From a virus: DNA of 64,000 nt. This document shows, one piece after another, positions 17,493 through 42,766 of the stretch. Under the pieces are notes generated by a model, which was not told where the DNA came from, ran no database searches, and saw only the letters and a program-made list of their open reading frames with translations. How positions within the stretch are numbered: the stretch's first letter is position 1; each line of letters begins with the position of its first letter. The DNA is taken from the IMG/VR virus record IMGVR_UViG_3300042557_000330, positions 1 through 64,000 of that record. One strand, written 5' to 3'. The position numbers and the translations under genes are program-made.

Positions 17493-20400
17493 TTATCTTA
17501 TACCGTAATTGGATTGAACTTTTATACCAAGGTCTTTGGCAAGTTCTGGATAGAACATTGGAAGATATCCTACCATCTGATTTGAAAAAGGAAATGTCTT
17601 CAACAAGTATTTAATTACATATGTTTTATCAGCAAGTTCTTCATCTCCTGTACCTAATGCCCACATCTCTTTACGGAAGTTACCAACTAGTTTAGCAAAA
17701 TTAGTTATAAGTGATGCAGATGGGAAAAACCCTTGTGATATAAGATCAATACCACTAGTAGGATCATAGAAATACATAAGCTCTCCTTTGAACTTATCTG
17801 CAGCTTTCATATAGAATTTATATTGATTTTTAACTAATGCACTCTCATCATCATCTGGCTCATTAGCTTTTAGTGCAGCAATTAATACAAATACTGTTGC
17901 TAAGAATACAACATCTACTAATTGAGATTTAATATTTTGTCTAGCAAGATCTATGAATTCAGCCTCAGTCATTTCAAGTGTTTTACCTGTATCAGCTTCG
18001 TATTCATTTTTCTTTTTTTCAAACATCCTAACTAAATATTCAACTCCTTTTTCATTACCTGTCAAAGAATTGTACAACTTACCTAGTCCTGAAACAGGAT
18101 TTGTAATACTAAATTCATCTGTTAACACTTTAAATACCATTCTTGTTCTTCCCCATTCATATGCATCAGACGCAGAATTATATTTTAAGTTACCCATACG
18201 TACATCAACAAGTCTAGGAATCCAGTTTTTGAATACCATGAATGATTTTCCATATACACTCATGTTAATCATTCTAACATCATCTTCAGATAAGTTACCT
18301 AATGCATCTTTAGATACTTGTTGAACTTTTCTTCTAAGTTCTACAACAGAATCAGATTTTTGATCTACTCCAGGGATTACAAATTTACCATCAATAACCT
18401 CACCAACTTTTAACACTCCTTTTTCTTCTACAAGTCTTTTCACTTCTTGATCAAACCTATCTTCATATGCTTTTCTATCTGCTACAGATCCTTTGTATTT
18501 CTCTTGATATTCAGGGAGAGTTCTTAGATATTCTCTAGCATTAACCACTTTACCATCTTGTACAATTGAGTTTTTAAGGAATGCATAGAAGTTAGATGTT
18601 TGCACATTTAAATCTGTTTGTCTCATCAAGATCATTAAGAAATCTTGTATACTCTCTTGTGTTAATCCATTCAATGAAAGTTTTTTAGCTATCTCTCTAT
18701 TATAATTATCTGTTAATGGTAAGAAGTACTCTAAGGCACCAATCATTTTCTTTTGATCTGTACCACCAAACTTATTCATAAATATCATCATCTCTGCAGC
18801 TAAGTAATCTTTCTTAGTAAAATACTTACCTGAGTTGATTAATGATTGAGCATTACCACCAAAGAAGTTGGAAGATGCAGATAATAAATTAAGTCCTAAT
18901 GTTGTTATTTGAAAAGTGTTATTTAACTGGTTGATAAATTTATTTACACTTAACTGTCTATCAGACAATCCTTCTGGAAATACATTTACACCAAGTTTTT
19001 TATTTAATGTTTCTCCCCAGTTTCCTAGTTTAAATAAAAGTTGATCAAACATCTGACTATCTACAAACTTCTGTCCATAGATAATTGCTTTCATCATATC
19101 TTCTACAAGTTGAGAATTATCTCCTTTGGTTTCTGAATATTGTAACACTCCATCTTTGTAAACTGTTTTACCAAACATAGAAGTGGATATAGATTTTTTA
19201 TTTTTCTCAACAGCAACAACAGCATTCACTTGATCTTCTATCTCACTTAAATATTTATATCTAATAGCTGCTTCATTATACATTGCCATAGTTCTAAATA
19301 AATCAGTAGATGTTTCTTGTTCTAAAGGTCTAGTGAAATATTTAGGTATCTTGTTAACCACTTTTCCTGTATCAGGATCTACTTCTCCGTATCCTATATC
19401 ACCTTCATCTACAGATATATCAGTAAAGAACTGTTGACCTAATTTAATTTGACCTCCTGTAACAAGTTTCTCTACTAGATTCTTTCTTACAAATGGAAGA
19501 AATGTTCTAGCAAATTGTTTGCTAATATAACCAAGATCTGCATACTCATTGTTCTTTCTAATAATATAATCGTAGAAATCTTTAGCAGGAGCATTCTCTG
19601 GTTTATTTAACTCTTTCCATTCTTGAGAAGTCCATTTATCTTTCTTAGGAAACTTCTTCACCTCATCATAAATAAACCAACCTGCAGATGTAGTGGTGCT
19701 AGTATTATATAAGTTTCTAGCTCTATATATTTCTACCATCACTTCATTAGGAAGTTTACCATTAGATAATGCTTCTGCTTCTTCAGAAGTTAATAGTCTT
19801 GGTTTATTTTTAATTCTTTCTATCTCCTCTTCAAGTTTTTCTTTTAAATGTTCATTGTATGCAGCAACATCAATGTTCTCTCTAATCCAAGAACTGTCTC
19901 TATCATCAGGAGCATTCTTTAACTCTTCTTTAATTTTAGCTTTTACATCAGTGTAAAACTCTGGATTGTACTCATCTATAAGTTCATTAGAATCTTTCTT
20001 CTTAATAATATCAAAGTAGTTTTTATAAGATAATCCTTTTCTCTTAGCCCATGCTTCAAATTTATCTTTTAATTCGTCAAGAGTTTTACTTTCAGCTAAT
20101 GTATCCATACCAGAATAAGCAAACGCTCTGTTGGCTTTTTTATACAAGAACTGAACAGCTTTGCTTTGTAATGTAGCTGTAGAAGAAAACAATTTACTAA
20201 GTCCTTTAATTACCTTCTCGGGAGCTAAGAAATTATCTATATCTTCTCTCTTAGCAATTATATTCTCTGTGAATTCTTCTAAGATTGTTTCTAGTTCATT
20301 CTCTAAGTCTTTAGCATTCTCAGAAGTTCTTCTTAATTCTTTTTTAAGTTTCTCATCCTCTTCACTTTCTGTCAATAATCCTTTTAGTTCAGAATAAAGA

Positions 20401-22379
20401 TCTGTATATATACTAACAGAAAACTGTGCATCAGCAATTTCTTTAGCAAAATCATTCACTTCTTTTTCACTTAATGCTTTAGCATCTTGATCTTTGAAGT
20501 TGTTTTCATAGTTATTAATTAACTTATCAATTTGTTTGTTTAACAACTGAGATTGTCTAACTAATGGTTGAATGTTTTCTTTAACTTGTAATTGTCTAAT
20601 AGCATGGAATAATGAATTAAGTAATTCATCTTTATTAAGTTTCTCAGATTCAACAACTTTCTTATCAGAAATCTTTTTGTATAGTTTATTAAGTTCTCCT
20701 AATAACTCATCTATCTTTCTCTTACCTGTCTTCTCACCTTTAAGTGGAACAGGAAGTAAGTAATCATCTTTAATGTTCTTAACGTTTACATCTCCTATCT
20801 TAATGTTAAGTAGAACAGGAAGAATGTTTTCTTTTGGATTACCTTTTGAATACAAAGCTTTGATAGGGATCATTCTTGTTTGTTTGAACTTCTCACCTTT
20901 TATACCATAAGCATTTTGTAAAATACCTTTATATTGTTCCATCTGCATATTCCATGCAGTGTTTTTATACCAAGGAACATCTGTATATTTATCTGTATCA
21001 AGATCCATAAACTTCCAGTCAAGAATATTTACATCACCATTTGGAGCAATAGCCAAGAAGTCTACAGTACCAGCAATGTTTGCTTTAGGATTATAGATAG
21101 TAGCTTCAGACATGAATCTAGTTCCTTTAGGGAAAGAGTTAAGACGTTCTTTAAGATTGTCTCTTAACATCTCATACATCTGTCTATTGTTAGGATTGAT
21201 TCTAGATTGATATCCAGTATCATCTAATGGTGTATCTCTTAAGTATCCATTCTCATCTACAAATAATTCAAACGCATATTCAAGATCAGCATGTCCTGCT
21301 GTACCTTTTTCAGCTTTTAAATCAAATACAGACTTCTGATATTCTGTTTTATTTATATCTCCATCACGGAAGATTCTTTCATACCATTGAGCTATCTTAT
21401 CAGAAACTCTAGGAATAGTTTTACCATTAATCTTATACCCACCTTCTTTAGGCTTCTCTATACTATCTGATACTTCTTTGATTCTGTTTATTACAGCTTC
21501 TTGAGGATCTAATTGCAAGAAGGCCATACCTTCTTGTTCATTAATATCTTCTGCAGTACCAATGATTTTACCAGTTAGAATATCCATAGACAACTGATCA
21601 AATCCTGATGTAGTGAATAAGTTTTTAAAGAAGTCAACAATACTATCCCACCAACTTTGCACCTTAGCAATGTTCTCTGGTTTTTCTGTAGATCCTTCAT
21701 TGTTCTTAATGATTGTCTCAGCTAACACTTTAGCAATAGCTTCTTCTTTAAGTTTTATTACATCAGGTTTACCATCTATCTGATACATAGGGTTTTGTCC
21801 ATATGTAGCAAATACATCATTAAGAATATCATATTTATTAATCTCACCCATTAACTTTTTGTATAGAGTAGGATTAGTTTGTTTAATGATTGCTACAGCA
21901 AAGTGCATAGCTTCTTCAGGAAGAGATTGGGCTTCTTTACCTTCTACAACTTGAATAAGTTTTTGCGAAAGTAATGCAACACCAGCAGCATCTTGTTTAA
22001 TACCATCAACTACAACATTCTTTAGTGTTTTAACATCTACACCAATACGTGCAAGAAAGTCATTAACCATGGCTACTGTTTTAGGAGAAGCAGTAGAAGG
22101 TATAGGACCATCACTTAATTGATAAAAGATTCCTTTAGCATTATCTATTTGTTTAAATAATGTTTTGTTAGGAACAGCTTTACCATTCTCTTCATAAAAC
22201 AATTTACCTTTTGTTCCATACTTATCTGCAGCAACAGCAGATAATTCATTGTTACTCTTTACAAATTTATTGTAATCAGTTATTTTAAGAAATTGATCAA
22301 TAATACCACGAGTTCTCAACCAAGCTTTGGTTGAGGCCTCTGAGGTTTTAAATTTTTTCTTATCATTGCAATTTGCCAT
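17493..22379 (-). CDS. Large putative ejected cargo protein of the RNAP block with degenerate zincin (EEAMH) and PD-(D/E)xK nuclease domains
   Basis: LPEEAMHFAV; GTAGH..E...SE..I......IAGTVDFL.......ILDWKF...QMEQY; directly follows the RNAP gene. Confidence 0.75.
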   Translation of the reverse strand: MANCNDKKKFKTSEASTKAWLRTRGIIDQFLKITDYNKFVKSNNELSAVAADKYGTKGKLFYEENGKAVPNKTLFKQIDNAKGIFYQLSDGPIPSTASPKTVAMVNDFLARIGVDVKTLKNVVVDGIKQDAAGVALLSQKLIQVVEGKEAQSLPEEAMHFAVAIIKQTNPTLYKKLMGEINKYDILNDVFATYGQNPMYQIDGKPDVIKLKEEAIAKVLAETIIKNNEGSTEKPENIAKVQSWWDSIVDFFKNLFTTSGFDQLSMDILTGKIIGTAEDINEQEGMAFLQLDPQEAVINRIKEVSDSIEKPKEGGYKINGKTIPRVSDKIAQWYERIFRDGDINKTEYQKSVFDLKAEKGTAGHADLEYAFELFVDENGYLRDTPLDDTGYQSRINPNNRQMYEMLRDNLKERLNSFPKGTRFMSEATIYNPKANIAGTVDFLAIAPNGDVNILDWKFMDLDTDKYTDVPWYKNTAWNMQMEQYKGILQNAYGIKGEKFKQTRMIPIKALYSKGNPKENILPVLLNIKIGDVNVKNIKDDYLLPVPLKGEKTGKRKIDELLGELNKLYKKISDKKVVESEKLNKDELLNSLFHAIRQLQVKENIQPLVRQSQLLNKQIDKLINNYENNFKDQDAKALSEKEVNDFAKEIADAQFSVSIYTDLYSELKGLLTESEEDEKLKKELRRTSENAKDLENELETILEEFTENIIAKREDIDNFLAPEKVIKGLSKLFSSTATLQSKAVQFLYKKANRAFAYSGMDTLAESKTLDELKDKFEAWAKRKGLSYKNYFDIIKKKDSNELIDEYNPEFYTDVKAKIKEELKNAPDDRDSSWIRENIDVAAYNEHLKEKLEEEIERIKNKPRLLTSEEAEALSNGKLPNEVMVEIYRARNLYNTSTTTSAGWFIYDEVKKFPKKDKWTSQEWKELNKPENAPAKDFYDYIIRKNNEYADLGYISKQFARTFLPFVRKNLVEKLVTGGQIKLGQQFFTDISVDEGDIGYGEVDPDTGKVVNKIPKYFTRPLEQETSTDLFRTMAMYNEAAIRYKYLSEIEDQVNAVVAVEKNKKSISTSMFGKTVYKDGVLQYSETKGDNSQLVEDMMKAIIYGQKFVDSQMFDQLLFKLGNWGETLNKKLGVNVFPEGLSDRQLSVNKFINQLNNTFQITTLGLNLLSASSNFFGGNAQSLINSGKYFTKKDYLAAEMMIFMNKFGGTDQKKMIGALEYFLPLTDNYNREIAKKLSLNGLTQESIQDFLMILMRQTDLNVQTSNFYAFLKNSIVQDGKVVNAREYLRTLPEYQEKYKGSVADRKAYEDRFDQEVKRLVEEKGVLKVGEVIDGKFVIPGVDQKSDSVVELRRKVQQVSKDALGNLSEDDVRMINMSVYGKSFMVFKNWIPRLVDVRMGNLKYNSASDAYEWGRTRMVFKVLTDEFSITNPVSGLGKLYNSLTGNEKGVEYLVRMFEKKKNEYEADTGKTLEMTEAEFIDLARQNIKSQLVDVVFLATVFVLIAALKANEPDDDESALVKNQYKFYMKAADKFKGELMYFYDPTSGIDLISQGFFPSASLITNFAKLVGNFRKEMWALGTGDEELADKTYVIKYLLKTFPFSNQMVGYLPMFYPELAKDLGIKVQSNYGIR

Positions 22380-22389
22380 GGGTTATATA

Positions 22390-25300
22390 TTAAAATGGTA
22401 CACAAGAATCATCGTTGTTTTCTTCTTTCCAAGAATCATCTTCTTGTTCAAAAAGATCTAATTGTTCTCCTGGTTGTTCTACTTGCTCAGGTCTAAGTTC
22501 TTCTCTTACTTCCATAAGTAATCTTGGGAACTCAGTACCCCACTTACCCTTATCTTGTGTATGAGTAAGGGTAGCATTACCTGTAGCTAATAGTTTTTGA
22601 AGAGCTGTTGGATTTTGTTCAAAAGAATTTTTTAACAAAGCTTTCATTATTTCTGAATTATTGTTATTCCAATCTTTTATTTCTAATCCTTCAATAGTTT
22701 GACCTAATTGTTTAGCTTGACTACCTGTACTTTTTGAAAATTTATTTAATAAATTTATTTTTTCTTCATTAGAATATTTTTCTGAATAAAATATTTTATA
22801 AGCTTGATATGCACCTTCTACTGTATTAAATACTAATACATTTCCAGTTATATCTTTATAAAGTTCTGATAAATCACCATCTTCTTTAAAAGGTCTATTA
22901 GCAAAGTTGCTTAACTCAGCATTCTCTCCTGTACCTGCATAGATATTTATTTTTTCTCCACTGAATGTCTGTGTAGGTTCAGCTATAACTTCTGTAGGTA
23001 AAGATACAACTTCTTCTTTAGGTGTAATCACTTCAAACTCAATAGCAGCAGCACCATCTTTAAATCTATCTATAACATTTACATCTTCAGCTCTCCATCC
23101 TTCTTTAGCCCATGTACCTTTCCAACCTTCAGACCCTTTAGGATGAATAGCAGTCACTCTAGCATTTATAGTTTTAGTAGTTCCATCTGCAGATTTACCA
23201 AAGTTTTGTATAACATCACCTACATTAACTGAATATTTCTTCATTTCAGAATCACTTCTTGTAGTTCTTGTTCTTACGCCTGCTTCAATCATATCTATAC
23301 TATGAGGATTTGGACCTAGAAGTTCAATAGCTTCATCATTTGCACTGACTAAAGAACCATATGATTCAACTCCAGACACTTTGTTTTGAGGAACACTTGC
23401 TACAACTTGATTACTTGTAGATTCAACCACTTCTTCTGTTGGTAAAGATACAACATCTTCTGTAATATTCCCATCGAAGTATCCAATAATTTTTGCATCA
23501 GAAAGCTCTTGATCTATTTTAATTGTACCGTTGTTAAGAACAGAAGGTCTTCCATCTAAATAGTATTCAGAAACTATATTACCATCACCAAGTAAGTTAA
23601 CTAGTTTGTATACATATCTACCTTCAAAGTTTAATAATGGTTGACCATTTGAGTATTTAACTTTCTGATATCCATAGTAATCTGTTAGAGAAGTGTTACC
23701 TTGCATTCTCATAGCTTTCATAGCTTGTGAACTAATAGTTTTACCAGTGATAAGATCTACGTTCTCACCTTTTTTGTTTACAAACACTCTAGGCACTTTA
23801 ACAAAATCACTGTTTGCTCCATTACCCATATCAAACATAGGACTTAATGTCAAGACTAATCTTTTGTTTTCAGCATCATCAAATTTAGTTTCAAACATTT
23901 CAGTTTGATATTGATATACATCATTACCAAAAGGATCTTCTCCTAATATAATTTCAATCTCTTCAAAATTTTCATCTCTTGGAAATGTAAATCTAGGAGT
24001 AATTGTAGGAACTATCTGTTCATCCTTAAAATTATTCTTTTGGAACATTCCTCCATTAGCAAAATATTCTGTATCAGCATTATCAATCAATCCATCTATA
24101 ATAGGTTTAATCTCTTTAGAATAATCTTCTAAAGGAATAATGTTATTGATTGATAACGGAGACTGATAAGTACCTTGTAGAAGAGCCACCTTAACAATGT
24201 TGTTATACAACTCAGGATCTAACTCTCTTAACTCTCTCATCATCTCTACATACAAGTTCTCATCATATGCTTCTTTCAAGTTCACTTTAAGTTTGATAGT
24301 TTGTGCACCATCAACTTTCTTAGATGATTCTGGAACAAGATCTTGTAACAATTTCATTCCAGGATACTTCACCTTAGCTTTTGCTAATTGCTCAGCAATA
24401 GAATTATCTCCTGTAGTTAGTTCTAATATTCTAGAGTTAAGTCCTGATTTAGTTTGTATAATGAAATCAAGGAACGATGCTTTAGCTTTACTAGCAATCT
24501 TAGAGAAATCATCATCACCTATAAAGTCTTGTTTCTCAAATGAGTTCAATACTTTATTAGTTATATCTACAAATCTTTCTTGTTCAAGTTTAACAATTGA
24601 ACCAACAGCTTTCATTGCTAAGTCTATTAATCTTTTTTGATTACCAATTGAGCTTGAATCTAATAATTCATCTATAGAAGTGAATATATTTAAATCTCTT
24701 GCTATATCTGTTTTAGTTGACTTTCTATTAAATACATCAGAGTTTTTAAACTTAGTTGTATCATAGTTTGTAGCTTGTGTAAACTTAAAGCTGTATTCAG
24801 CCATCTTAGAATACTTCAAGAAATCTGTAAGGATTGCTCCTTGTTCTCTATTCTGTACCTCACTCAACATTTTATTTTTGTTATTGGCATAAGTTTCAAT
24901 GTTAGATTTTAATGAATCTACATTATACACTTCTTCTTTTGCATACTTACTTCCCACTTTAGAAAGACCAAACTTAGCTCTTGTAGCATTGATGTTTTTT
25001 GTATTGTATAAGAACTTACTCCCTTTAGATTCAAGAGAACTAAGGTATTCCATAACAATTGGTTGGTTCATAAACCATATTGCATTTTGACCAGCACCAA
25101 TTCTTTCTAAGAACATGAACGTACTAATAGCAGAATCAGATTTAACAATCTTCATGATGTATGGATCTTTTGCAATATCCACAACAGAAGTTGCGTATCC
25201 AGAAAGTCTATTAGAAATAAACTTATCAGATCCATCTGCTGTCTTAGTTCCAGAAAGAGATGTATATTCTTTACCATCAATATTAGTTGTATTGTGTGGT

Positions 25301-28300
25301 AGATTAATTTTACGATCTCCTAAGAAGAAACGATCTGCATCAGGAAGAAAGTTAGCCACCTTATCAATGTCCATTACTAATTTCATTCTTTGTGCAAGAG
25401 CGTGTCCTGTAATGTTTACTGCAGCAATACCAATCCATCTCTTACCAGTAAGGAATGCATGTCTTAGTCTTGTTAAATAGTTTCTATTGATGATTCTATT
25501 TTTAATCTTCTCATCTGTATTATTTCTCATTCTATCTAACTCAATAGATATATCTTTTAATCCAGCATCATCAACAGGCGTAATTAAGTTTTGAAAGTTA
25601 CCAGGAAGCGTGATAAGTTTTTCAAATGCATCAAAGTATCTATTCTCAAGAGCTTTCTTGTACATGTTCTTAACATACTTATCTTTCATCTCTTTATTAA
25701 GTAACTCAGAATTAAGTCTTTCTGTTTTCTTAGCAAGAGCATCTATTTGATTAGTCATATACTCAGAAGGTAATACATCTAATCCATCAGCTTGAGAGAT
25801 TATTTCATTAATAATGTCCTCATGATTTTTATAGAACAATCTTTGTTCTTTAGATACTACAATGTCTGTTTGTTCAAACGCATTTAATACATCAAGTAAC
25901 TGAGCTCTGAACTCATCATTGTTAGAAATTTTCTCAATGCTTTTCTTGATTGTACCATCATACACTTTACCATAGAAGTCTTTAGTAGCTTTCTCAGATC
26001 CTTTGTAATCAACTGCATGAAGTCTTCCATTCTCATCTACATATACTGATTTAAGATACATGTTAAGTTTATCAATATCAAAGTCAGATCCTGCTTGAGA
26101 TGTAATCTCTGAAGGAACAATAACAGTTTTACCCATATAGTCTGGTAAGAACCCTACCACTCTAATAGCATTCATAGAAGACATAGATTGTGTAGGGATA
26201 CGGAAAGCAATACCTCTTAGAATTCCTTGGTTCTCAGGTCTGTTTAATTCTCTAATAAGATCTGCATTATTTTTAAATTTACCTTTAAGTGATTTCTTCA
26301 TCCAGTTAGGAAGCATCACCTCTAAGTAAGGATCTTCTTTTGTAGGGAAGTGAAGTCTATCACTAGTAAGAACCACTTTACTTTTTTGATCTGCTGGCAA
26401 AGCTTCAAATTCTTCTTTAGATAGTTTTCTATATCCATCTTTTTCTTTTATAGCAATACCTCTTCCTTGCTCAGCACTCTCCCATCCTGTTACAGCAGCT
26501 TGTGTATATCCTCCTCCATTCATTTTAGGAGACACCAATGATTTGTTAATCATTGAATAGATGATATCTTTAATCTGTTTGTATGCAGGAGAAGATTCAT
26601 ATGGAATTCTTTGTTGACCATTTTCATCTAACTGAATAGTTTCTTTGGCATTGTTTGAAAGCTTTCTTCTAAACATTTCATTCTCAAGAGTCTTAGCTAT
26701 GATTGATGGATCTAACAATTCAAATTGTCCAACACCAAGATCTTCTACACCAAACTTAGATAAAAGTTCTACATATGCATTATCATCAAGATCTTTAAGA
26801 GCTTTGTTGTATTCTTCAAATGCTTCTTTAGCTCCTTCAATAGTTTCTTCACCATTGTCAAACATATCCATAGTAACAATCTTAGTAGGTTGAGAACCTC
26901 TAGTTTGTTCAGTTCCTCCTTCATATGCAGTTTCAACTTGAATACCATTAATACTCCAAGGTACTAGCACTTGAGTATCTGGAGCAAATGGAGCATCATT
27001 GAATGAACCATCTTGATTATAAAGACTGTGTGTTTTTTCAATACCAACCTTTCTACCACTTTCCATGATAACATAGTCAATCTTCTCGTTAAACATTTTA
27101 ATATACAACTTCTCAAGGTTAGTACCTTGTACAGCACTATAATATAAAGGCATTTGAGATGTTTTATCTAATACAAGCTTAATCTGGTTTTCATTAAACT
27201 GACTACCAGATACAATTGGTTTAGTAATATCAATTACATATTCAGGTTCTTCTTCTAATAATCTTTTCTCATCAGAAGCTTTTAACTGTTTGTTAGTATA
27301 CTTATACACTCCTTTGTTAGATAGAGCATATCTAGTTAAAGCCATTTGCCATTGGTGCCAAGCTTCAGCATTTTCAGACCACTGTCCATTTTTATTCTTA
27401 ACTTCTCTATAAGCTACATCTGACATCAATGAGATTGCATCAGCTTCATTAACACCTGTATAGTTGTCTGTATCAAGCTCAACATCTTTTAATGTTACTG
27501 TAGTAGCATAATCTTTATTATCATGATATCCATAATCTTCTGGAGTTAGTTGTATACCATCCACTTCATTTTGACTATTCAAGAATGTATTATATTCAGC
27601 ACTGTTGAACGTAGTTCTTCTTGGAGAATAGAATGATTTATATCTTTTTGTCGCATCTAACTGTCCATTTTTAATTTTGAACTGATATGGATCACCAAAT
27701 AATATTTTGTGAAACTCAATGTTATTGATATAGTTGTTTGCATTTACAAACATCAATGTATTATTAAGTTGAGTCTCAGTCATCTTTAACTTATTGATTC
27801 CTTCTTTCATAACAAAACCACTATCAAGTCCAGCATATGAATACATATTTTCTGCATCATTACTTTTCTTAACTGCAGATACTATCTCACCATAATTAAG
27901 AAGTATATCTCTTGTACCATTAACAAGATCTTGTAGAGTTTTATCTATAGCTGTATTAATAGCATCAATGTTCTTAGAAATATAATCTTCAAACTCAGCG
28001 TCTGTTGCAGCTGCATCATCTATCATTATATTAAGTTCTTCTAATTGCTTAGGAGCATAGTCTTCTAATATCTCTTTAAAGAAACGTAATTCTTTAGCTT
28101 TAGCTCCAACGTTCTCAAGAGATCTTCTACTCTTCCAATCACGAGCTAATGCAATATCATCATCTAAATATCCTCTAAAGATTTCATGTATCTCATCCAT
28201 AGCTCTACCACCTACAACATTTGTATATGATATATAGTTACCAAGGTTCATCATCCATTCTGTAGATCCATCTGCAGGGATAAGTATATAATAATCTCCA

Positions 28301-31300
28301 TTAAGGTTTTGATTTATTTCTTGTGTACATCTCTGACCTTCAGTTAGTTTACTAGTAGTAGTTCCTTTATTACTATCAATAGATTTCTTACCTTCGATGT
28401 AAGAAACTTTTATCATCTTAAATCTATCTCCTAGATCATTGAAGAATAATCCACCTTTTTTAAATGTAATAGCATTTTTAGAGAATACATCATTAAGTTC
28501 TGGTCTTGCTTTCTTCAAGTCTTCTATTGTTTGAGAATCATTAAATACATTCTCAAAAACTGAAGGAGCATTGTTATCAGAATAAACTTGTTTCTTATTA
28601 CCCTCAACACCAATCAATGTATTCTCCTGGTTAGGATTGTCCACTTTAACTTGTAGTGAAGCAAGCTTAGAAACTTGTTTATTAATCTTTAATGTCTTAC
28701 CATCTAATGTACCAATGTCTTTAGCTTGTGGTAAGTAGTTATATATCTCACCTACAGCATCACCAAACTGTTGTCTTTGACTAGTTTGTTCTCCTGATTG
28801 AGGTTGAGATTTTAATCTTAAGTAATCAGCCATAGTGAATGTGATACCTAAATCCTTTAAGAAATTAATCATTTCTTCTGGTGTCTTAGGTAACGTTTTT
28901 GGAAACAAAGGTGAGTCAGCATTAACTTGATATGTTTTAGTTTCACTATTAAATCTAACTAATCCCTCACGAGTTTTAGCTAATGCTCTCATTTGACTAA
29001 ACCAATCTTGTTCAACTTGTTTAGTTATTGTAAACTGATTAGCAGGAGCAGTGTATACTTCTGTTCCTACAACATATTGTACAAGAGCATTTGGTTTTTG
29101 TTTAGTGAATGCTTGGTAGAAGTTTATAAATAATCTCCAGTCTTCAGCTTTGAATTGTTCAAAAGGAATAGTTCCTGTATCAAGATCACCTCCAACACGT
29201 TGGAAGAATCTAACATATGTAGCATCGTATTTAGCAAGGTCAACTAACTTGTTAACTGCTTTACCAATACTTGTTGTATTAGATATCTTATCTAATAACG
29301 TAGCAAACACTCTACTGAAGTTAGCCACCTTATATCCTTTAACAGAAGAGAATGCTCTCTGTGGTAAGTTTAAGCTAGTAGCATTTTGTTGATTAGTAGG
29401 CATCACTTCTGGAAGTGTGGCAGCAACAAACTTAATAGCAAATGGAGAAGTCTTTTTCCAATCAGTTGTAAATGCTTCTTGAGAATAACCAACACTAGTT
29501 ACATTCTCATCATTGATATCTACAAGATCTTCTTCATTAAAGTTCACACCGATTGTACGTAATAATTGTTTTGCTTGTGCAAACAATGCATTGAAACGTT
29601 CTTCTCCTAACTGCTCATATTTCTTTTCATTGATATAAGCTTGTTTGATTTGGTTGTATATCTGAGCACCTGTGATTTGTTGTAAATCATAGATGTATTT
29701 CTTGTTATCACCAAATATAAACTGTGCAGCACGAGCAAACATATCCTGTGCATATTCAGAAGCTTGTGTTTCTGTTATACCAGGGATTCTACTATATGTA
29801 GGTGGTCCTTTCTTTTGTGCTTCAGAGATAGTGAATTCTTTATACTTACCAGCATCAATAGCTTCGAAAAGCTCTTTAGCTAATGAAGGGTTAGAGTTGT
29901 TAGCTTTAAAGAAATTAATAATTCTTCTAAAGAATCTAAGAACTAATTCACTCAATGATCTAGCAGGAAGTTTACCCACTTTGAATTCACCAAAGTCATC
30001 AGCATATCTTTCTTCTATTTGTTCATCTGTAGCATCAGCATAATTGATTTTCTTACCAGAAGCTCTATCTATAAACTGTCCAGCTTTGTTTCTAAACTCT
30101 TCTTCAAGAGCAGTTCTCTCATCAGGAGATAAGAAGTGTTGCCATATAGGGTGAAACAACTCGTGATAACCAACTGTTCTTGGTCCAGCTTTGTAGAACT
30201 TAGCTACACCATCAACGTATACACCAAATGCTTTCTCACCATCAAATGTATCCACAAGATCATTTAACACTTCTAATGGAACACCAGGAAGGTTTTCAGC
30301 TTGGAATGTTTTTAATATTTCAAGTTCTTCATTAGTCATTGCTTCTTCAACAGAAGGTCCAACTCTCATGTAATCATCTTGAGGAAACTCTGTATCAGCT
30401 ACATCAATGTTATCTGTTTTCTCTCCAGTTTCTAAAGCAGATAGTTCTGCATTTTCTTTTAATTTATTTAAAATTTTTTCACTTAACTCTCTTCGTTTAA
30501 CTGCAACAAAAGCATCTACTCCTCTAAGGTAATCCTCTTTACCGTGTGTCATACCTAGTTTATTCCATTCAGCTATTGCTTTATCTTTTTCTAATATTGC
30601 ATCTATATAATCTTTTGCAATTGTATTTGGAATAAAACCTTTAATAGGAGTAAAATTACCATTTTCAAAATCTATTGTTCCTGTAAATTCTATTTGATTA
30701 TTAATTATTTTAAACTTAAAACCATTACGGTGAGGATTAGTTGTTATTTTACTTTTAAGTATTTCATTTAAATCTTTAACTTTTGAAGGATTTACATATG
30801 ATTTATCAGAAGTATCATTTGTTATTTCTATATCAGCTTTCTTATCTGTAGGTTGTTCTAAGGCAGCTAATGTATTTTTATAATCTTGTTCTGTTTGTCT
30901 AATGGCTTTTAATCCTGCATTGCTTCCTTGATAATCTTTAGAACTTCTTTTAGTTTCTTTTTCTATTCTATTAGGAATATCTGCTAATTCTCCTTTTAAC
31001 CAATTTTTCCATTTCTCAATTTGTTCTCCAGATAATTGTTCAACAACTTCTTTAAACTCTGGAGAATTTATATAAACTCGTCTGCTACCTTCTTCTGTTG
31101 GTATTCTAACATCACCTTTTTCTGTTTGATTTATTTTTAAAACATTATCTTCTTCAACTACAGGAGCTTCTTCTACTTGTTGTGTGTTCTGTATTTCTTT
31201 TAATGCAGCAATAAGTTTATCACCAACAAATGTTACCACACGTTGTTCATCACTAGCTTCTGGATCATATTTATCGATACTTTGTAATACAGTGTCTACT

Positions 31301-34300
31301 GTATTCAATATATCTGGATTACTTGCAGCAGTAGTAATTGTATCGTTAACAGTTAGATCTACAGCAATGTTACCATCAGCATCTAATGTTCCTGTAAACT
31401 CAACAGGACCACTTGCAAACTGATATGTTTGTGGTGTCTTACCATCCATCACATATTCTCCAATAGCATTACCAACAACTGGTTTAGCAACAACTGCTGC
31501 TTTTACTACAGGAGCAGGTTTAATAAGTGGAAGATCATAATCGATCAATGTAGCATACTTCTGCATGAAAGAGTAAGGAACACTTTCTGTAGGAGCAGCC
31601 ACTTTAGTTGTAAGTGGTGTGTTCTCACTAGTGCGTGAAGCTTTACCATCAGGCATTTTTGATGATAACAAATATGATTGATAGTTTTTCCAAACTCTAG
31701 CTACAAGTTCTCCTTTAGCATTTGTATCTCCTGTATACTCATAGAACTTACTACTAACATCTTTTATAGTTTTACTATTGATGCTATGATATGTATCACT
31801 AAGTTGTTTTACCATCTCAGCTTCTTTATTCTCAATATCTACAATAGGATAGTTTACACCACCTAAAGAAATAGTTCTTTTGTTTGTATCAATAAAGAAT
31901 TGGTTACCAGATGTTTGTGCACTCTTACGTAAGTATAAAACATTCTGTAAGTAAGTTAGATAGTTTACATTTATATCTAACGGTTTACCAGATACAGATT
32001 TTTCTTTGATATCATTAGCTAAAGCTTTGATCACTTGATACAATGAGTTAGCTTTCTCTTTACCTAATATAGTATTGTTTAATACTTCTAACGTATCATC
32101 ATATTGTAGAATAGGTATTCCTTTTTGTTTGAATGATATATTCTTTCCTTTATGAGAAACAAACCCAGCAGTGTTTATTTGAAGAAGTCCTGCTTGAGAA
32201 GATATTCTGTTTTCAGGAATCAATATTCCACCAACTTGATTTCTTTCATAACGACCATTAACTTTATTAATAATAGGTAATCCTCTAGAAACATTAATCT
32301 GGTACACTTTATATTGACCGTTGCTGTTTGCAAATAAATTAGCTCTCTCTTGTCTCCAACCATTAGCTGCAGACTCAAGGTTTTCTTTTTCACCTTGTCT
32401 GTATCTAGGAACTCTTTGTCCAGTTTTAGGATCTGTATAGTTGTAATAAAGATCTGTTGTAGGCATAGCTTGGAAGATAGCTTGATTGATATCAATCTGT
32501 GTACCCACTTCACCAATTCTATTTCCATCTTTATCTACAAAGAATGTTTTACCATTCTCATGTTCTACAAATACTTGTGCAACAAATCCAGTATCAACAT
32601 CGTTGATTTTATCTTCTGCAGTGGTAGGTCTACCAAACTGTAAGTCTGTAAGTCCTTCTAATCCTAATGCTGCTTGATTGTTTGGTGTAACTAGTATTGC
32701 ACCTATGTTACGTACATTTTTAAAGTTCTTAACGTTGTTTAAAAACTGTCTAGCGTTCTTAACATGTTGAGGTGCATTAGCACGATTCTGATCATTCTCA
32801 GATTCACTTGTACCTGATATATAGAAATCTTTCCAACTCTTTAAATAACTCTCATCATCTTTTACTATCTCTTCTGCTGTAGTAGTTTCTGTAGGTGCAG
32901 GCGTAGCAATCTCACCAGAGTTAAGTTCTACCTTATCCTGTTCTCTATCTATCTCATTCTTAGTAGCAAGTAATGCTTGCTCTTCTTTTTCTATAGCAGC
33001 ATTCTTTTCTTTTACAGACTTGTATGTTTCATCTATGTTGTTTGTTATAACAGCAATAGTTTCTTCTAATAATGTTTCGTTATTAGTGCCAAACAATCTT
33101 CTGAAGAATGTTTTTAATGAATTAACAAATGCTTCCCATGTAGAAGTCTTTGTACCTTTATATGGAATAGTTTGTAGATATCTTTGAAACTCTCTATTAG
33201 ATAAAGCTTCTGTTGCAAACTCATATATGTTTTTGAATGCGTAATATTCACCATCTTTAATCAATCCAGCTTCAGCATATTTGTTAGGATCATTCTTAAA
33301 TGTTTCTTTTACAAATTGAAACAATGGTTCTAGTTCTTTATAGAACTGTCCGTTTGTATCGGACAATGCATATGTAGTTAAGTCATGTCCTATCTCATGT
33401 AACAATACATGTTCTAAAACCATACTCCCAGTGTTTTCATAATCTGAAGCAACAGCTTCATAATTAATTCTACTTATTGCTGAGTTAGCATCTGCTCCAC
33501 GTTGAGAAACTCCAGGTGTAGATAATGTTCTATCACCTAATATAATTTTACTATCTCTACTAGTAAAGTTTAAGAAAGCTGATGCTAATTGTTTTTCAAG
33601 AGTAGTAGCATAAGGTGAGTTAGCAATCTTTTCTAACACTTCATACTTACTCTTCTCCCCTTCACCATATTGATTTACAATATCTTCGTAAGTTCTTTTA
33701 TCTGATTTAAATTTATTTCTACTCTTAGAAAAGTATTGTGAGTTATTTTTATCAGCAGGAGTAGTTCTAGTCTTCTTTCCTTCTGGTGTGAATTCTTTTT
33801 TCTCTCCAGTAGATGTATAGTTTTGAGGATTAGCTAAAAGATCTTTATACTCATTAACATAATATTTTCTTCTTTGAGAAAGTTCTATTACATCTTTGAG
33901 TCCTTGTTTTGTATTATCTTTATTAATTACATTACTAAAACTATCTGATTCATCTATTTCATATAACTGTTTAGCAAGTGCTACTGATGTATCATTAGAT
34001 AATTCAGAGTCTATTATTTCTTGTACGTTGATATTTGATTTTAATAAATCTAAAGATAATTCAGGAATACGTTTATCGTAATCTATAATTTTTGTTGCAG
34101 TGTATGAAAGTTTTTCAATTACATCATCAGAGTACTTTCTAAAAACTTGTCCAGTATCTTCATCTGTAAAAGTTTCTGAACCATATGTAGTATTTAATTG
34201 TTCGTAAACATCATCAAGATTGTTTACAAAAGTTTCTATCTCTGTTAATCTATCAAGAAATTGTTGTTTCTGATCATTAATGTTTCCCATTCCCTCTTCT

Positions 34301-36132: not shown

Positions 36133-36143
36133 AAATAAAATAA

Positions 36144-38933
36144 TTAATATTTATTTAGTAATTGCTCTAGTACTGGAGGTGAAACATAAGAAGGTAATAC
36201 CTCTCTCATTAATTTTCCTAAGTTAGCATCAGATGCTTCTATAGGAATAACTTTATCAACTTTTCCATTGTTGATATATATGTAGGGATAATATTTATTT
36301 CGAGATTTTTTAAAATTAACTTTCACAACATAGTTTGTTCCTGTTAAGAAAGGAAAATCTGTATTATCCATAGGAGCAGACTCTTGTCTATATGTTGATG
36401 TTTTATTTATATCACCATAAGAACTCTTTCCATTATTTGAGTTAATAAGACTCTCTGTTGCAAGCACTACTTCATCATCATAGATTGAACTAGGATTTAC
36501 TCCAAATTTCTGAGACTCTTGAGAATTTAAATATAACTTATTATCTCCAATCTGTATAAATGGTGTAGGAGTTCCAGAAGCATCTTTCTCAACTCCTTTA
36601 ATTATATTTGCAGAACGAAGCTCTTGGAAGTTTTTAATGGCTTTTATCCCATTAATAACCTCATCAGCATTCTGTCCAATAGCATTTTTATTTTTAGAAT
36701 AAGTATTTGCAATACCTCTCAAGTTCTCAAGAAGAATTTTGTCACTCTTATCATCTCCTGTTGTAAAAGATCCTGATACATTAGGTACTACAGATCTATA
36801 TTTTCTTATTGATGATGCAATTTTTTCACTATCATCTTTAAAACTATCATTAGTTATGCTATCATAGAATTTATAAATATCTCTGAATCCAGAATCTTTT
36901 ACATAGTATGGAGTCATGAAACCAACAGTGTTAATTCTTCCATACTTATTTAAGTCTTCTTGTATTTTTTTATCTAGAATTTTTCTTTTCTCTTTTGAAG
37001 GAGTAAAACTTGATATCCAGTTTTCTACAAGCTCACCTTTACCACTTCTTTCAAGTCTAGATTTTGCTGCTTGATATCTTGTGTTAAAAACTTTTGCTTC
37101 TTCTGTACCTATTATTTTTGCTTTCCAATCTTTATCTTCATATTTTCCTATGATAGCTAGATCTATAGCATCTCTTTTTGTTAATGTATATGTTCTGTCT
37201 CCAATACGAATGTTCTTTTCTTGAAAAGGAATACTGTTCATTTTTTCAAGAAAAGTTCCATCTGAATTTTCTTGTACATTTTTATCAATGGTTGATTGTA
37301 TTTTCCAATTCTTATTAGCTTCATCATATGAATTAAGCTGATCGTATAAAGCAGGATTTTGTTTTTTCAACTGCATTCTTGCTTGTGGAGTGTTGTATGA
37401 ACCTTGTACTCTTGAAGTTAATGATAAAACATAATCATCATATGATTTACCTTTTGACTTAGCTGTAACCTTTAATATATTTTCAATAGCTTGTGTTCTT
37501 GTAATAGGAGCACCGTTGTATTGTTTTTTCATTTCACTAGATAATCTTGCTTCATTTCCAGATGCAAAAACAGATTGCCATATCAACTCTAATTGATTAT
37601 TTTTCATATTTAAAGCAGCGTCCTCAACTTGATTAGTGTGATACATAATATCATTAAAATCTTGAGATTCAGAATCTTGATTTAATTCTGGAGTCATTAT
37701 GTCTGCAGCAGCACCTACTTTGAGCTTGGCTTTTTCTAATTCAGTTTTTTGATCAATAACCTTAAATCTTTCTTTTTGCTCATACTCTTGTTTGAATTGC
37801 CATCTTTCTCTAGCTTCTCTTTGAGAAAACTCATTGACTCTATTAGCTTCTTGTTGTAATTTAAAATTAGCCTCCCAATCAGGGTTAGCCATTTTTTCTT
37901 TACTTGTCTTAGAAACATCAAACATTGCTGTATAGTTATCTTTAGTTTTATTTTTGTATAAAGAAGCTCTAATAGCATTTGGGTTAGAAGAAAGTATTTC
38001 TCCTGTTTGTGCAAGATTTTCTCCAAGTTTAGAAATAGATAATTCTGTATTTGTTATTTGTTCTTTTATCTCATCACTATTTGGATCTAGTTGTAATTGT
38101 ATATTCAACTCATCCAATTTATCTTCATACTTTTCTTTAATCTTATTTGCTTCAGATGTTACAGAGATGGCAAGTTGATCAGGACTAACTCCTCTATAAG
38201 CATACTCACCTGAGATGGTTAATTGTTGATTAACTCTTGGATCATTAAATATTTGATCAATTGCTGCTTCTAGTTTACCAGGTAAATATCCTTCTTCTTT
38301 AATTCTTGTCATTGCAGGACTTAAAACAAGATTTCCTTTTGCATCTGTAACATACTTACCATCTGGCCCTTTTTGATAAATCTCATCAAAACTAAAGTTA
38401 TCTATTTTCAATCCATCAATTGTTTCTTTTGCATGTTTCAATACATCAAAATAAGGAACATATCTAGCATTGTATGATTGTTTTAGATCTGTGCTATTTG
38501 TCCACTCACTATCTCTTGTTGTAAAATAAGCTTGATTCTCTGGTGTAAGTTCACCTTTCTTACGAGCTTCTTCCATAAACTCGTATTCTTTTCTTCTTCT
38601 AGCAGAAGAGCTTACAGCATTTTGTACATTAGGATCTTTGATTATTTGATTAGTCATCCCACTTACAGAATTGACTAATTGGAAATTAGAGAAATCTCCA
38701 GCAGCTACTGTTCTAAGATCATTACCAAGTTGATTAAGCTTAGATTGTAGATATGCCTTATCTACATCTCTAGCTACATCTAATCCAGCAATGTTATCAA
38801 TACTAGTTTGTATTTTTTGTATACCCTCATCATATTGCTTCTGTTTCTGCATACCTACTTGAACCATTGCCTCTACAGGCAATTGTTGTACGTAAGGATT
38901 AAATTGAGGTATTGAGTCAGTGAAACTTGCCAT
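36144..38933 (-). CDS. Putative ejected cargo protein preceding the RNAP
   Basis: FNPYVQQLP..AM..VG..KQ.QYD N-terminus, helical, crAss-type position before the RNAP. Confidence 0.7.
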   Translation of the reverse strand: MASFTDSIPQFNPYVQQLPVEAMVQVGMQKQKQYDEGIQKIQTSIDNIAGLDVARDVDKAYLQSKLNQLGNDLRTVAAGDFSNFQLVNSVSGMTNQIIKDPNVQNAVSSSARRRKEYEFMEEARKKGELTPENQAYFTTRDSEWTNSTDLKQSYNARYVPYFDVLKHAKETIDGLKIDNFSFDEIYQKGPDGKYVTDAKGNLVLSPAMTRIKEEGYLPGKLEAAIDQIFNDPRVNQQLTISGEYAYRGVSPDQLAISVTSEANKIKEKYEDKLDELNIQLQLDPNSDEIKEQITNTELSISKLGENLAQTGEILSSNPNAIRASLYKNKTKDNYTAMFDVSKTSKEKMANPDWEANFKLQQEANRVNEFSQREARERWQFKQEYEQKERFKVIDQKTELEKAKLKVGAAADIMTPELNQDSESQDFNDIMYHTNQVEDAALNMKNNQLELIWQSVFASGNEARLSSEMKKQYNGAPITRTQAIENILKVTAKSKGKSYDDYVLSLTSRVQGSYNTPQARMQLKKQNPALYDQLNSYDEANKNWKIQSTIDKNVQENSDGTFLEKMNSIPFQEKNIRIGDRTYTLTKRDAIDLAIIGKYEDKDWKAKIIGTEEAKVFNTRYQAAKSRLERSGKGELVENWISSFTPSKEKRKILDKKIQEDLNKYGRINTVGFMTPYYVKDSGFRDIYKFYDSITNDSFKDDSEKIASSIRKYRSVVPNVSGSFTTGDDKSDKILLENLRGIANTYSKNKNAIGQNADEVINGIKAIKNFQELRSANIIKGVEKDASGTPTPFIQIGDNKLYLNSQESQKFGVNPSSIYDDEVVLATESLINSNNGKSSYGDINKTSTYRQESAPMDNTDFPFLTGTNYVVKVNFKKSRNKYYPYIYINNGKVDKVIPIEASDANLGKLMREVLPSYVSPPVLEQLLNKY

Positions 38934-38949
38934 AATATTTATTGATTAG

Positions 38950-38957
38950 CAAATGTA
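38950..38957 (-). promoter_or_regulatory. -7 promoter element (TACATTTG) for the RNAP operon
   Basis: TAnnTTTG match 16 nt upstream of the ATG at 38933. Confidence 0.65.
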
Positions 38958-39022
38958 ACAGAAATAATTATACTATACAATATAAATCTTTCATGCTACG
39001 TAAGTATTTATAATTAATTTTA

Positions 39023-42763: not shown

Positions 42764-42766
42764 ATT

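Follow-up and report, generated by a model that had tools for sequence, protein, structure and literature searches.

The DNA analyzed here, which we call the window, is a stretch of 64,000 nucleotides from a virus (positions 1 to 64,000 of IMG/VR record IMGVR_UViG_3300042557_000330, a viral record of 73.9 kb with a CheckV completeness of 64%). Its minus strand carries an uninterrupted open reading frame (ORF) of 4580 amino acids (aa), whose neighbours on that strand encode virion, tail and fibre proteins. On the basis of its sequence and of analogy with an experimentally studied homolog, we propose that the ORF encodes a virion-packaged, host-injected RNA polymerase (RNAP) polyprotein and that the phage is a deep-branching crAss-like one. 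A NADAR domain, the main subject of this analysis, lies close to the C-terminus of the polyprotein. The sequence-only reading of the window, which was made without database searches, had suggested that this domain is a counter-defence against DNA ADP-ribosylation that arrives with the phage genome. We find that the domain is genuine, that it has the expected catalytic residues and that it belongs to an exchangeable cassette (Table 1). The proposed role in counter-defence is, in our judgment, somewhat better supported than the sum of its alternatives.

Residues 4403-4535 match the Pfam family PF08719 (NADAR/DUF1768) at profile positions 9-133 of 163, with 54.1 bits (E-value 2.9e-14) against a curated cut-off of 35.1 bits, and a Pfam search of the whole record yields the same match at 54.9 bits. 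When a profile built from the window's domain and seven family members was compared to the PDB, it matched Escherichia coli YbiA (2B3W, E-value 2e-9) and the NADAR protein of Phytophthora nicotianae (8BAU, E-value 3e-5). The same profile also matched coronavirus spike S2 (E-values 1e-3 to 0.06), which we rejected as noise from helical repeats. An AlphaFold2 (AF2) model of the domain has a predicted local distance difference test score (pLDDT) of 85 and a predicted template modelling score of 0.82. With this predicted structure, Foldseek assigned a probability of 1.00 to both 2B3W and 8BAU and of 0.51 to a third NADAR structure, 8BAT. VIA-align superimposed the model on 8BAU with a Z-score of 15.3 (root-mean-square deviation 2.2 Å, 145 residues), on 2B3W with 14.2 (2.4 Å, 142 residues) and on 8BAT with 8.2, while the next, unrelated chain scored 2.5. 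These three solved NADARs are thus the only credible structural neighbours of the model, and residues 4395-4545 are a genuine NADAR domain for which a YbiA-like fold is predicted. Other resources were less informative: among the PHROGs matches of the 4580-aa protein, the NADAR region corresponds only to a family of 'unknown function' and the RNAP region has no match at all, and a megablast search of the giant gene against phage GenBank records gave no match.

These results bear out much of what had been read from the letters alone. The motif string that had been quoted (LSNF...TVEGAYQAYK...LLMEVRE) is present in the minus-strand translation of positions 22390-23700, within the last 437 residues of the ORF. 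The span that had been claimed, 22495-22955, fits the domain as we place it, and the proposed check, a match to YbiA or NADAR by profile or structure, was obtained by the Pfam, PDB-profile, Foldseek and VIA-align comparisons. The statement that the domain sits on the C-terminus of the polymerase was only partly right. The domain is indeed close to the C-terminus, but a conserved tail of 35 residues follows it and a module of 120 residues separates it from the polymerase body; the cassette-like nature of this region, and the clamp-binding motif and cysteine of the tail, had been overlooked.

The catalytic residues on which the enzymatic claim depends, and whose absence had been named beforehand as a ground for abandoning it, are all in place. 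Aligning TVEGAYQAYK of the window with TSEHYFQAQK of YbiA identifies Glu4439 and Lys4446, and Trp4488 aligns with W89 of YbiA. In characterized NADARs, catalysis relies on a Glu, a Lys and an acidic residue in the last strand, namely Glu43, Lys50 and Glu125 in the P. nicotianae enzyme (PnNADAR) and E88, K95 and D171 in the E. coli C7 enzyme (Schuller et al., PMC11543638). The third of these residues varies by type: YbiA-type NADARs have Glu, DarT1-linked ones Asp and those of phages His (PMC11543638). The profile alignment to 8BAU pairs the 'LTH' of the family with 'LYE' of the structure, and its His with chain residue 127. Since an offset of 2 between chain and published numbering was verified on R79, W89 and R93, this residue is E125, so His4524 occupies the third catalytic position. 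All three residues also align with the same residues of a homolog of gp30.3 from a T4-like phage. Moreover, Glu4439, Lys4446, His4524 and Trp4488 are each invariant in 154 of 154 NADAR segments of the same subtype, where each segment represents one cluster at 50% identity.

The window's domain is therefore a His-type, or 'phage-type', NADAR with intact catalytic residues. It does not have the last-strand Glu that is typical of the YbiA subfamily, because the LTHTQD segment provides a His (or Thr or Gln under alternative alignments), nor the Asp typical of the DarG1/BC4488 subfamily. Pfam scans of the neighbouring cargo genes revealed no ADP-ribosyltransferase (ART) domain, although no search of the record was aimed at DarT. 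The Pfam family of T4 gp30.3 (Phage_30_3, PF08010) is not among the matches of the window's protein at E-values of up to 0.01, and a tblastn search of the domain against T4-like phages gave approximately 32% identity (E-value 2e-4). Given an identity of roughly 30% and the missing PF08010 match, we regard the domain as a lineage apart from T4 gp30.3, even though both have the His. Its conserved residues, together with the published activity of other NADARs, suggest that it is a guanine-ADP-ribose N-glycohydrolase.

The carrier had also been identified as a crAss-type virion RNA polymerase, and homology supports this. A phmmer comparison aligns approximately 1000 residues of the window's protein with chain residues 811-1726 of PDB entry 6VR4, i.e., gp66 of phage phi14:2, with an E-value of 1.1e-22, and the DFDID motif of the window's protein falls within this alignment. 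The aspartates of the corresponding motif in gp66, 1361-DFDID-1365, are essential (gp66 preprint). Experiments have established that gp66 is packaged, is translocated with the DNA and transcribes early genes, and that its templates in vitro are single-stranded or denatured DNA (gp66 preprint). In another crAss-like phage, PhicrAss001, mass spectrometry identified the three RNAP-associated proteins as virion components; these were modelled as capsid cargo that partly unfolds for passage through the tail, and an illustrative packing estimate in that study gives 6 copies of each. The window's polymerase core is distant from named Crassvirales, with at best 22-25% identity to GenBank records by tblastn, while its metagenomic relatives number in the hundreds and have lengths of 3800-5200 aa.

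Table 1. Features of the giant ORF and of the cargo genes near it (positions in the window; aa positions are those of the 4580-aa protein)
Feature	Position	Strand	Remarks
Giant 4580-aa ORF, proposed crAss-like virion RNAP polyprotein with NADAR module	22390..36132	(-)	Uninterrupted ORF; homology to gp66
NADAR domain, aa 4395-4545	22498..22950	(-)	Pfam PF08719, AF2 model, Foldseek, VIA-align
Catalytic Glu4439	22816..22818	(-)	Equivalent to YbiA E48 and T4 AdfN E36; codon checked
Catalytic, phosphate-binding Lys4446	22795..22797	(-)	Equivalent to YbiA K55 and AdfN K43; codon checked
His4524, position of third catalytic residue	22561..22563	(-)	Equivalent to E125 of P. nicotianae NADAR; phage-type His
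RNAP core, aa 2727-3746	24895..27954	(-)	Homology to phi14:2 gp66 (PDB 6VR4)
Catalytic DFDID, aa 3350-3354	26071..26085	(-)	Aligned with gp66 1361-DFDID-1365
C-terminal payload cassette (domain X + NADAR)	22469..23415	(-)	DNA breakpoints 23416 and 22468
Linker repeat copy 1 (ITEDVVSLPTEEVVEST)	23416..23464	(-)	End of conserved body; 49-nucleotide direct repeat
Domain X, aa 4250-4370	23023..23385	(-)	Homologs in giant proteins P0178, P0101, P0205
Linker repeat copy 2 (PKEEVVSLPTEVIAEPT)	22972..23020	(-)	Between domain X and NADAR
Internal variable region, aa ~1660-1890	30463..31155	(-)	Homology break relative to 35 close relatives
QLDLF, aa 4557-4561	22450..22464	(-)	Exact consensus of bacterial beta-sliding-clamp-binding motif
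Cys4577, conserved C-terminal cysteine	22402..22404	(-)	Terminal Cys found family-wide
Downstream 1628-aa Cys-poor cargo-like protein	17493..22379	(-)	Only Cys is residue 4 (22368-22370)
820-aa modular cargo protein	42767..45229	as cargo block	ORF

We compared the window's protein to 35 relatives with 74-92% identity in the RNAP core. Homology breaks at two places, approximately residues 1660-1890 and 4235-4545. At the DNA level, an identity of 80-90% to four IMG/VR loci (L007, L010, L012 and L013) ends at position 23416 and resumes at 22468, and these breakpoints delimit a cassette that consists of domain X and the NADAR domain. A direct repeat of 49 nucleotides, whose copies are 82% identical and which encodes an EEVVSLPTE linker, lies on either side of domain X. 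Of the two, the inner one is in addition 82-96% identical to the linker at the end of the relatives' conserved body. Such repeats, and the match to the relatives, are the footprint expected of cassette insertion through recombination at linkers, and from sequence comparison this is what the arrangement looks like.

What occupies the C-terminal slot varies widely. Among 120 listed family members, 2-1215 aa follow the conserved body. In close relatives, modules of approximately 105 aa (ILNGTKTTTIRE...), 150 aa and 83 aa and an AlkB-like dioxygenase (PF13532) occur in various combinations, or the slot is nearly empty. Relatives that are further away, with cores approximately 50% identical, have in the same slot a superfamily 1 (SF1) RecD/PIF1-like helicase with DUF7831, a cpYpsA-SLOG domain with NADAR, or AlkB with NADAR. 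Examples of these modules are found in P0030-P0032 (L012:5306-6295), P0064, P0071 and P0084 (AlkB-like; SF1 RecD/PIF1/TraI-like helicase with DUF7831; cpYpsA SLOG; AlkB with NADAR). Judged from their sequences, the AlkB-like, SF1 helicase and SLOG modules, all of kinds that act on nucleic acids or nucleotide derivatives, are candidate injected repair or anti-defence enzymes. The shuffling of conflict-related domains within one polypeptide, which is characteristic of polyvalent proteins, is thus seen here between proteins whose cores are 74-92% identical. In the internal slot, Pfam recognizes no domain in the window's protein, and one relative that is 85% identical (P0009; G001:C1:14113-14427, L014) has a divergent NADAR domain at aa 1681-1850. 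As for domain X, it carries a motif reminiscent of ASCH/PUA-like domains (MIEAGVRTRTTRS) that is suggestive only. An assignment to ASCH was rejected: Pfam has no match for domain X and gives an E-value of 0.17 for a module of the relatives, module A. A direct comparison of domain X with this module A by hhalign gave an E-value of 0.058 and a probability of 0.9%, and a profile search of the PDB found nothing credible.

The tail that follows the slot is conserved in two respects. First, each of the 36 close family members has a single QLxLF sequence, located 21-66 residues from the C-terminus (QLDLF, QLNLF, QLGLF or QLTLF), even though their tails are of three or four types, and a subset of the distant relatives also has the motif. 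The only further occurrence among the 36 is a QLELF inside the AlkB domain of three members. From composition, 0.0016 occurrences are expected by chance per 130 residues. The window's QLDLF is the consensus peptide for binding the beta clamp and was co-crystallized with E. coli DnaN; the variants QLNLF and QLELF also bind clamps. The predicted motif corresponds to the QL[S/D]LF consensus pentapeptide and lies in an accessible terminal region. These observations suggest that the injected polymerase, or the enzymes at its C-terminus, may dock on the host's DnaN.

Second, a cysteine occurs within the last 6 residues of 120 of 120 family proteins, despite a dozen or more unrelated endings and an overall cysteine content of 0.04%. 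It is the only cysteine in more than 4000 residues in most close relatives, and one of just 2 in the window's protein. The neighbouring gene products show a complementary pattern: orthologs of the downstream 1628-aa protein in L007, L010, L012 and L013 have a single cysteine at position 4 (position 3 in one of them). The same arrangement is seen in phi14:2 (L016; g067, g066 and g065), where gp67 ends with ...NTIC, gp66 has cysteines only at positions 3 and 2179 of its 2180 residues, and gp65 has one only at position 3. The terminal cysteine may link ejected cargo proteins head to tail through disulfides or a metal. Cysteines or disulfides of cargo proteins are not mentioned in the gp66 preprint or in the PhicrAss001 atlas; the latter documents many disulfides in the tail.

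Cysteines are rare in the cargo block as a whole. Its five consecutive giant genes (17493..45229) encode 7 cysteines in 9203 residues, and there are none in the 929-aa protein, in the 1246-aa protein or in the NADAR domain. By comparison, fibre and tail proteins in the window contain 1.7-6.7% cysteine. Cysteine depletion could be a simple sequence signature of ejected proteins, and the fact that the NADAR domain shares it is consistent with ejection of the entire chain. The location of the giant gene in the late structural/cargo block is a further, indirect indication that its product is part of the virion.

NADAR domains are fused to giant proteins of crAss-like phages often and, it appears from sequence comparison, independently. 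Searching 1.84 billion cluster representatives with the NADAR domain alone, we found 836 relatives with E-values of up to 0.001, including 184 with values of up to 1e-30. Among the best 150 of these, 69 are in proteins of at least 2000 aa, at N-terminal, central or C-terminal positions, and at least 27 of the 69 have an RNAP core that is detectable using the window's sequence. The 2959-aa protein P0122 is especially informative. Its NADAR domain (aa 2593-2749), which is followed by a SLOG/DprA-like domain (GGALGADS), is 96% identical to positions 22483-22950 of the window, while the polymerase cores are only 23% identical, which indicates recent lateral transfer between distant crAss-like lineages. 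There is also a second, divergent type of NADAR, with motifs LSN..F, SVEHAYQ..K and FTH, a Pfam score of 17.7 bits and a faint gp30.3 signal. Apart from the internal slot described above, it occurs in the C-terminal slots of P0049, P0097 and P0105, which means that NADARs of two distinct types are found in two slots of one RNAP family. As this divergent type falls below the Pfam threshold, counts based on Pfam underestimate NADAR fusions.

The window's subtype also occurs in named genomes. In cr126_1 it forms the N-terminal part of a 2402-aa protein encoded just upstream of the RNAP subunit (QOR59539.1, 'DUF1768 domain-containing protein'), in cr130_1 it lies approximately 400 residues before the end of the 5801-aa gp79, and in cr131_1 it is inside a separate 1401-aa protein, gp48. 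The segments of cr130_1 (L003:13941-14540) and cr131_1 (L002:13941-14570) have an in-frame stop in the catalytic motif under translation table 11 (VEGAF*AAK in cr130_1), and are clean when TAG is read as Gln. Recoding of stop codons is known in some crAss-like phages, in line with this reading. When 185,579 prokaryote species, each represented by one genome, were scanned with a pattern for the subtype, the only matching locus (L015, CAYGYF010000063.1) was on an 8.4-kb contig of a metagenome-assembled genome labelled Dehalococcoidia, where a 682-aa NADAR ORF is located behind an ORF of at least 1523 aa. This contig is probably a mis-binned phage fragment. The subtype thus looks restricted to phages, with the caveat that a scan for a pattern is not proof of absence from cells. 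Overall, the 69 giant fusions among the best 150 relatives, the use of two slots, the transfer seen with P0122 and the occurrence in other Crassvirales families would point to selection for the fusion.

How could such a fusion benefit the phage? DarT1 ADP-ribosylates guanine in single-stranded DNA and NADARs reverse this modification; activated DarT blocks phage replication and transcription (PMC11543638). A His-type phage gp30.3 is active in vitro (PMC11125620). T4 AdfN and two unrelated phage NADARs defeat the DarTG1 system, and the rescue by AdfN is lost in E36A and K43A mutants (PMC11257639). What had been stated about NADARs, i.e., that they remove ADP-ribose linked to guanine and counter DarT1, therefore matches published work (PMC11543638, PMC11125620, PMC11257639). 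In the explanation that we propose, the NADAR domain would enter the cell within, or together with, the polymerase, and would strip off ADP-ribose that a DarT1-like host toxin had placed on guanine, or another base, in exposed single-stranded phage DNA. In this way, the injected polymerase could still read its template at a time when no phage gene, not even an anti-defence gene, has been expressed. Since synthesis of the giant protein occurs late, progeny DNA awaiting packaging could likewise be cleaned by this activity. The conserved tail may dock the C-terminal enzymes on DNA-loaded host clamps through QLDLF, and the terminal cysteine may anchor the chain in the cargo assembly.

The appeal of this explanation is that early transcription relies on the injected polymerase, so an antidote that has yet to be expressed from a gene cannot respond to a template lesion that precedes expression; a pre-made enzyme is needed. 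An enzymatic activity also suits cargo proteins because their copy number is low, as in the 6-copy estimate mentioned above. The fusion to a polymerase, the preference of both DarT1 and gp66 for single-stranded DNA, and slot-mates that act on nucleic acids together suggest that template lesions are cleared in a manner coupled to the polymerase. What we infer here is that the NADAR module is packaged and ejected, which substrate it acts on, which host defence it counters and what the tail does. Considering all of the evidence from sequence and from analogy, we believe that a virion-delivered NADAR counter-defence is slightly favoured as the overall explanation. A more elaborate version seems to us doubtful, though worth stating: the C-terminal slot might be a hot-swappable toolkit of injected enzymes for template repair and anti-defence, tethered to the clamp and chained by cysteines, that removes lesions in a transcription-coupled way before the virus expresses its genes.

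It is important to set out the points that weigh against this explanation. The authors of the gp66 study expect that fused polyproteins are 'likely cleaved into individual components' (gp66 preprint). T4 gp30.3 failed to rescue E. coli from DarT1 toxicity although it is active in vitro (PMC11125620), which implies that NADAR activity on a given DNA depends on context. NADARs have substrates beyond guanine-ADP-ribose, namely riboflavin intermediates (PMC11543638) and, according to one report, cytidine-ADP-ribose (PMC12945103). The residue equivalent to R79, a phosphate contact in PnNADAR, is Gln in the window and Arg in only 97 of the 154 segments. NADAR is missing altogether from three relatives of 113-117 kb whose completeness is 98% or more, so the domain is an accessory, dispensable and niche-specific module. 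The ideas of clamp docking and of a cysteine anchor rest on short motifs only.

Cleavage is central to the alternative that survives best, which we nonetheless consider unlikely. According to it, the NADAR domain is removed by cleavage, or its action is confined to the cell that makes it, where it cleans replicating or progeny DNA late in infection and is not delivered by the virion. The expectation of cleavage just mentioned agrees with this, as does a zincin-like protease in a neighbouring cargo protein (gp66 preprint). In the window, the 820-aa cargo protein has an HELGH zincin motif, and the linkers that separate the modules of the polymerase are rich in Glu, Val, Pro and Thr and are duplicated at the DNA level. 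However, conservation of the tail beyond the slot (QLxLF in 36/36, terminal Cys in 120/120) implies that the C-terminus matters in the mature protein, and the NADAR domain shares the extreme avoidance of cysteine that marks the ejected block. Moreover, a free enzyme would have no need of fusion to a giant protein, yet such fusions account for 69 of the best 150 relatives.

The substrate of the domain might instead be RNA or another product of the polymerase: ADP-ribose placed on transcripts by RNA-targeting ARTs, 5' ends derived from NAD, or adducts formed during early transcription. The covalent tie to an RNA polymerase invites this idea. In addition, the superfamily was named for a predicted link between NAD and RNA processing, a C. 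elegans protein with three NADAR domains, SNA-3, functions in trans-splicing (PMC11543638, PMC11125620), and the activity on cytidine-ADP-ribose noted above shows that NADARs can reverse a further base modification. However, all phage NADARs that have been tested act on ADP-ribosylated DNA and counter DarTG1 (PMC11125620, PMC11257639), activity on RNA is not reported in the NADAR literature that we examined, and the AlkB-like and SF1 helicase slot-mates fit DNA equally well. We therefore see an RNA substrate as quite improbable.

Another conceivable role is that of an antidote to an ART of the phage's own, injected as part of the 820-aa cargo protein, similar to the YarT-YbiA or DarT-NADAR pairs. 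Pairs of an ART and a NADAR are indeed known (PMC11125620). The 820-aa protein is modular, with an N-terminal CxC...CxxC, the zincin motif, GGWLD(S/K)Y at both ends and, at aa 257-420, a widely shared domain (MWRG...YFTP...AEV). Its relatives exchange payloads that include lysozymes or transglycosylases (PF01464, PF00959, PF18013), a DUF (PF19197) and ART-PolyVal (PF18760), the last in two relatives (P0288 with 49.9 bits and P0357 with 32.3 bits). The nearest clusters in a protein atlas are ART-PolyVal/LPD23, with a score of only 0.82, which is below the trust level. However, Pfam searches of the 820-aa protein did not reveal an ART, not even with the isolated segment and an E-value limit of 10, the ART-PolyVal of P0288 is outside the region homologous to the 820-aa protein, and an AF2 model of the segment is unusable (pLDDT 46). 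Furthermore, the ARTs of polyvalent proteins are predicted to modify host proteins rather than guanine (Iyer et al. 2017), and NADAR is found in many giant proteins and contexts that have no such partner. This role thus has little in its favour. Least probable of all is action on a small molecule, as a YbiA-like N-glycosidase of riboflavin intermediates or by cleaving an NAD-derived immune signal in which ADP-ribose is bound N-glycosidically: E. coli YbiA and its plant homologs do have a damage-control activity in riboflavin metabolism (PMC11543638, PMC11125620) and YbiA is the best sequence match in the PDB, but the third catalytic residue is His instead of the Glu that defines YbiA, DNA ADP-ribosylglycohydrolase activity is found in those phage NADARs that do not belong to the YbiA-like group (PMC11257639), and a housekeeping role leaves the polymerase fusion and the AlkB-like, helicase and SLOG slot-mates unexplained.

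Several components of the favoured explanation, a NADAR counter-defence delivered by the virion, were already known: phage NADARs as a counter to DarTG1 (2023-2024), polyvalent proteins delivered in virions (2017) and the virion RNAP of crAss-like phages (2020-21). Automatic annotations, too, already label some such giant proteins as DUF1768 or YbiA. Among 8.4 million papers and preprints, we found no text that links crAss-like phages or virion RNAPs to NADAR, YbiA or DUF1768; the two that contain both Crassvirales and NADAR are general reviews of phage therapy in which the word occurs once or twice. Specifically, the survey of Iyer et al. 2017 mentions neither NADAR nor AlkB nor crAss-like phages, the text of the AdfN paper (PMC11257639) does not refer to virions or packaging, and the text of Yutin 2021 mentions 'multidomain proteins' but not NADAR.

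Abortive-infection toxins such as DarT hit an incoming phage genome within minutes. A phage that must transcribe its antidote from a poisoned template is in a bind, which a pre-made enzyme on the polymerase that reads this template would solve. If the explanation is correct, the phage order that is most abundant in the gut and in many waters would possess a counter-defence that is enzymatic, toxin-agnostic and delivered by the virion. Such a fusion also provides a handle on three problems: the role of 1600 or more uncharacterized residues of crAss-like polymerases, the defences that shape the dynamics between Crassvirales and Bacteroidota, and the purpose of the large part of the NADAR superfamily that is not linked to DarT. 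In addition, the variable slot points to further candidate injected enzymes (AlkB-like, helicase, SLOG and three unknown modules), and the analysis highlights two simple features of cargo proteins, the clamp-binding motif and the terminal cysteines.

It remains to compare the window's domain with the systems that are most similar to it. These include T4 AdfN (gp30.3) and orphan phage NADARs of the Bas32/Bas60 type, which share with it the fold, the Glu-x6-Lys arrangement, the His of the last strand and the fact of being encoded by a phage. Judged from sequence, neither AdfN nor the window's domain has an N-terminal extension of the DarG1 type, and both are proposed to reverse DNA ADP-ribosylation of the DarT1 type. 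AdfN, however, is a free-standing protein of approximately 145 aa, whereas the window's NADAR forms part of a 4580-aa polyprotein, the proposed virion RNAP, and is only about 30% identical to the gp30.3 homolog of a T4-like phage. The DarG1/BC4488 NADARs (E. coli C7; G. lovleyi, 8BAT) belong to the same superfamily and have the same core fold, Glu and Lys. They differ in having an Asp (D171) where the window has His, and a basic N-terminal extension and K115 that are needed for antitoxin function (PMC11543638). The window's domain, by contrast, starts straight after a linker and has no adjacent DarT gene, with the caveat given above that no search was aimed at DarT. YbiA (2B3W) and the P. nicotianae NADAR (8BAU) are the best structural matches, but they are single-domain cellular proteins with Glu in the last strand.

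With regard to the carrier, phi14:2 gp66 resembles the window's protein in its core of approximately 1000 residues, the DFDID motif, the giant Cys-poor products of neighbouring genes and the pattern of terminal cysteines. However, gp66 has 2180 aa versus 4580 aa for the window's protein, which has N-terminal fusions and two variable slots, and the alignment of the two ends in the RNAP core. The proteins of cr126_1, cr130_1 (gp79) and cr131_1 (gp48) contain the same NADAR subtype, at 39-52% identity, in giant proteins of the Crassvirales transcription and cargo block; they come from other families (Steigviridae and Suoliviridae), have the domain at other positions and have only been annotated automatically. 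Finally, polyvalent proteins, including those with an ART on N4-like virion RNAPs (Iyer et al. 2017), and T4 Alt are similarly giant, contain shuffled conflict-related domains and are predicted, or in some cases known, to be delivered together with DNA. The difference lies in what is delivered: the RNAP fusions of that survey put an offensive ART on a single-subunit RNAP of the N4 type, while the window puts a predicted de-ADP-ribosylase on a two-barrel RNAP of the crAss type.

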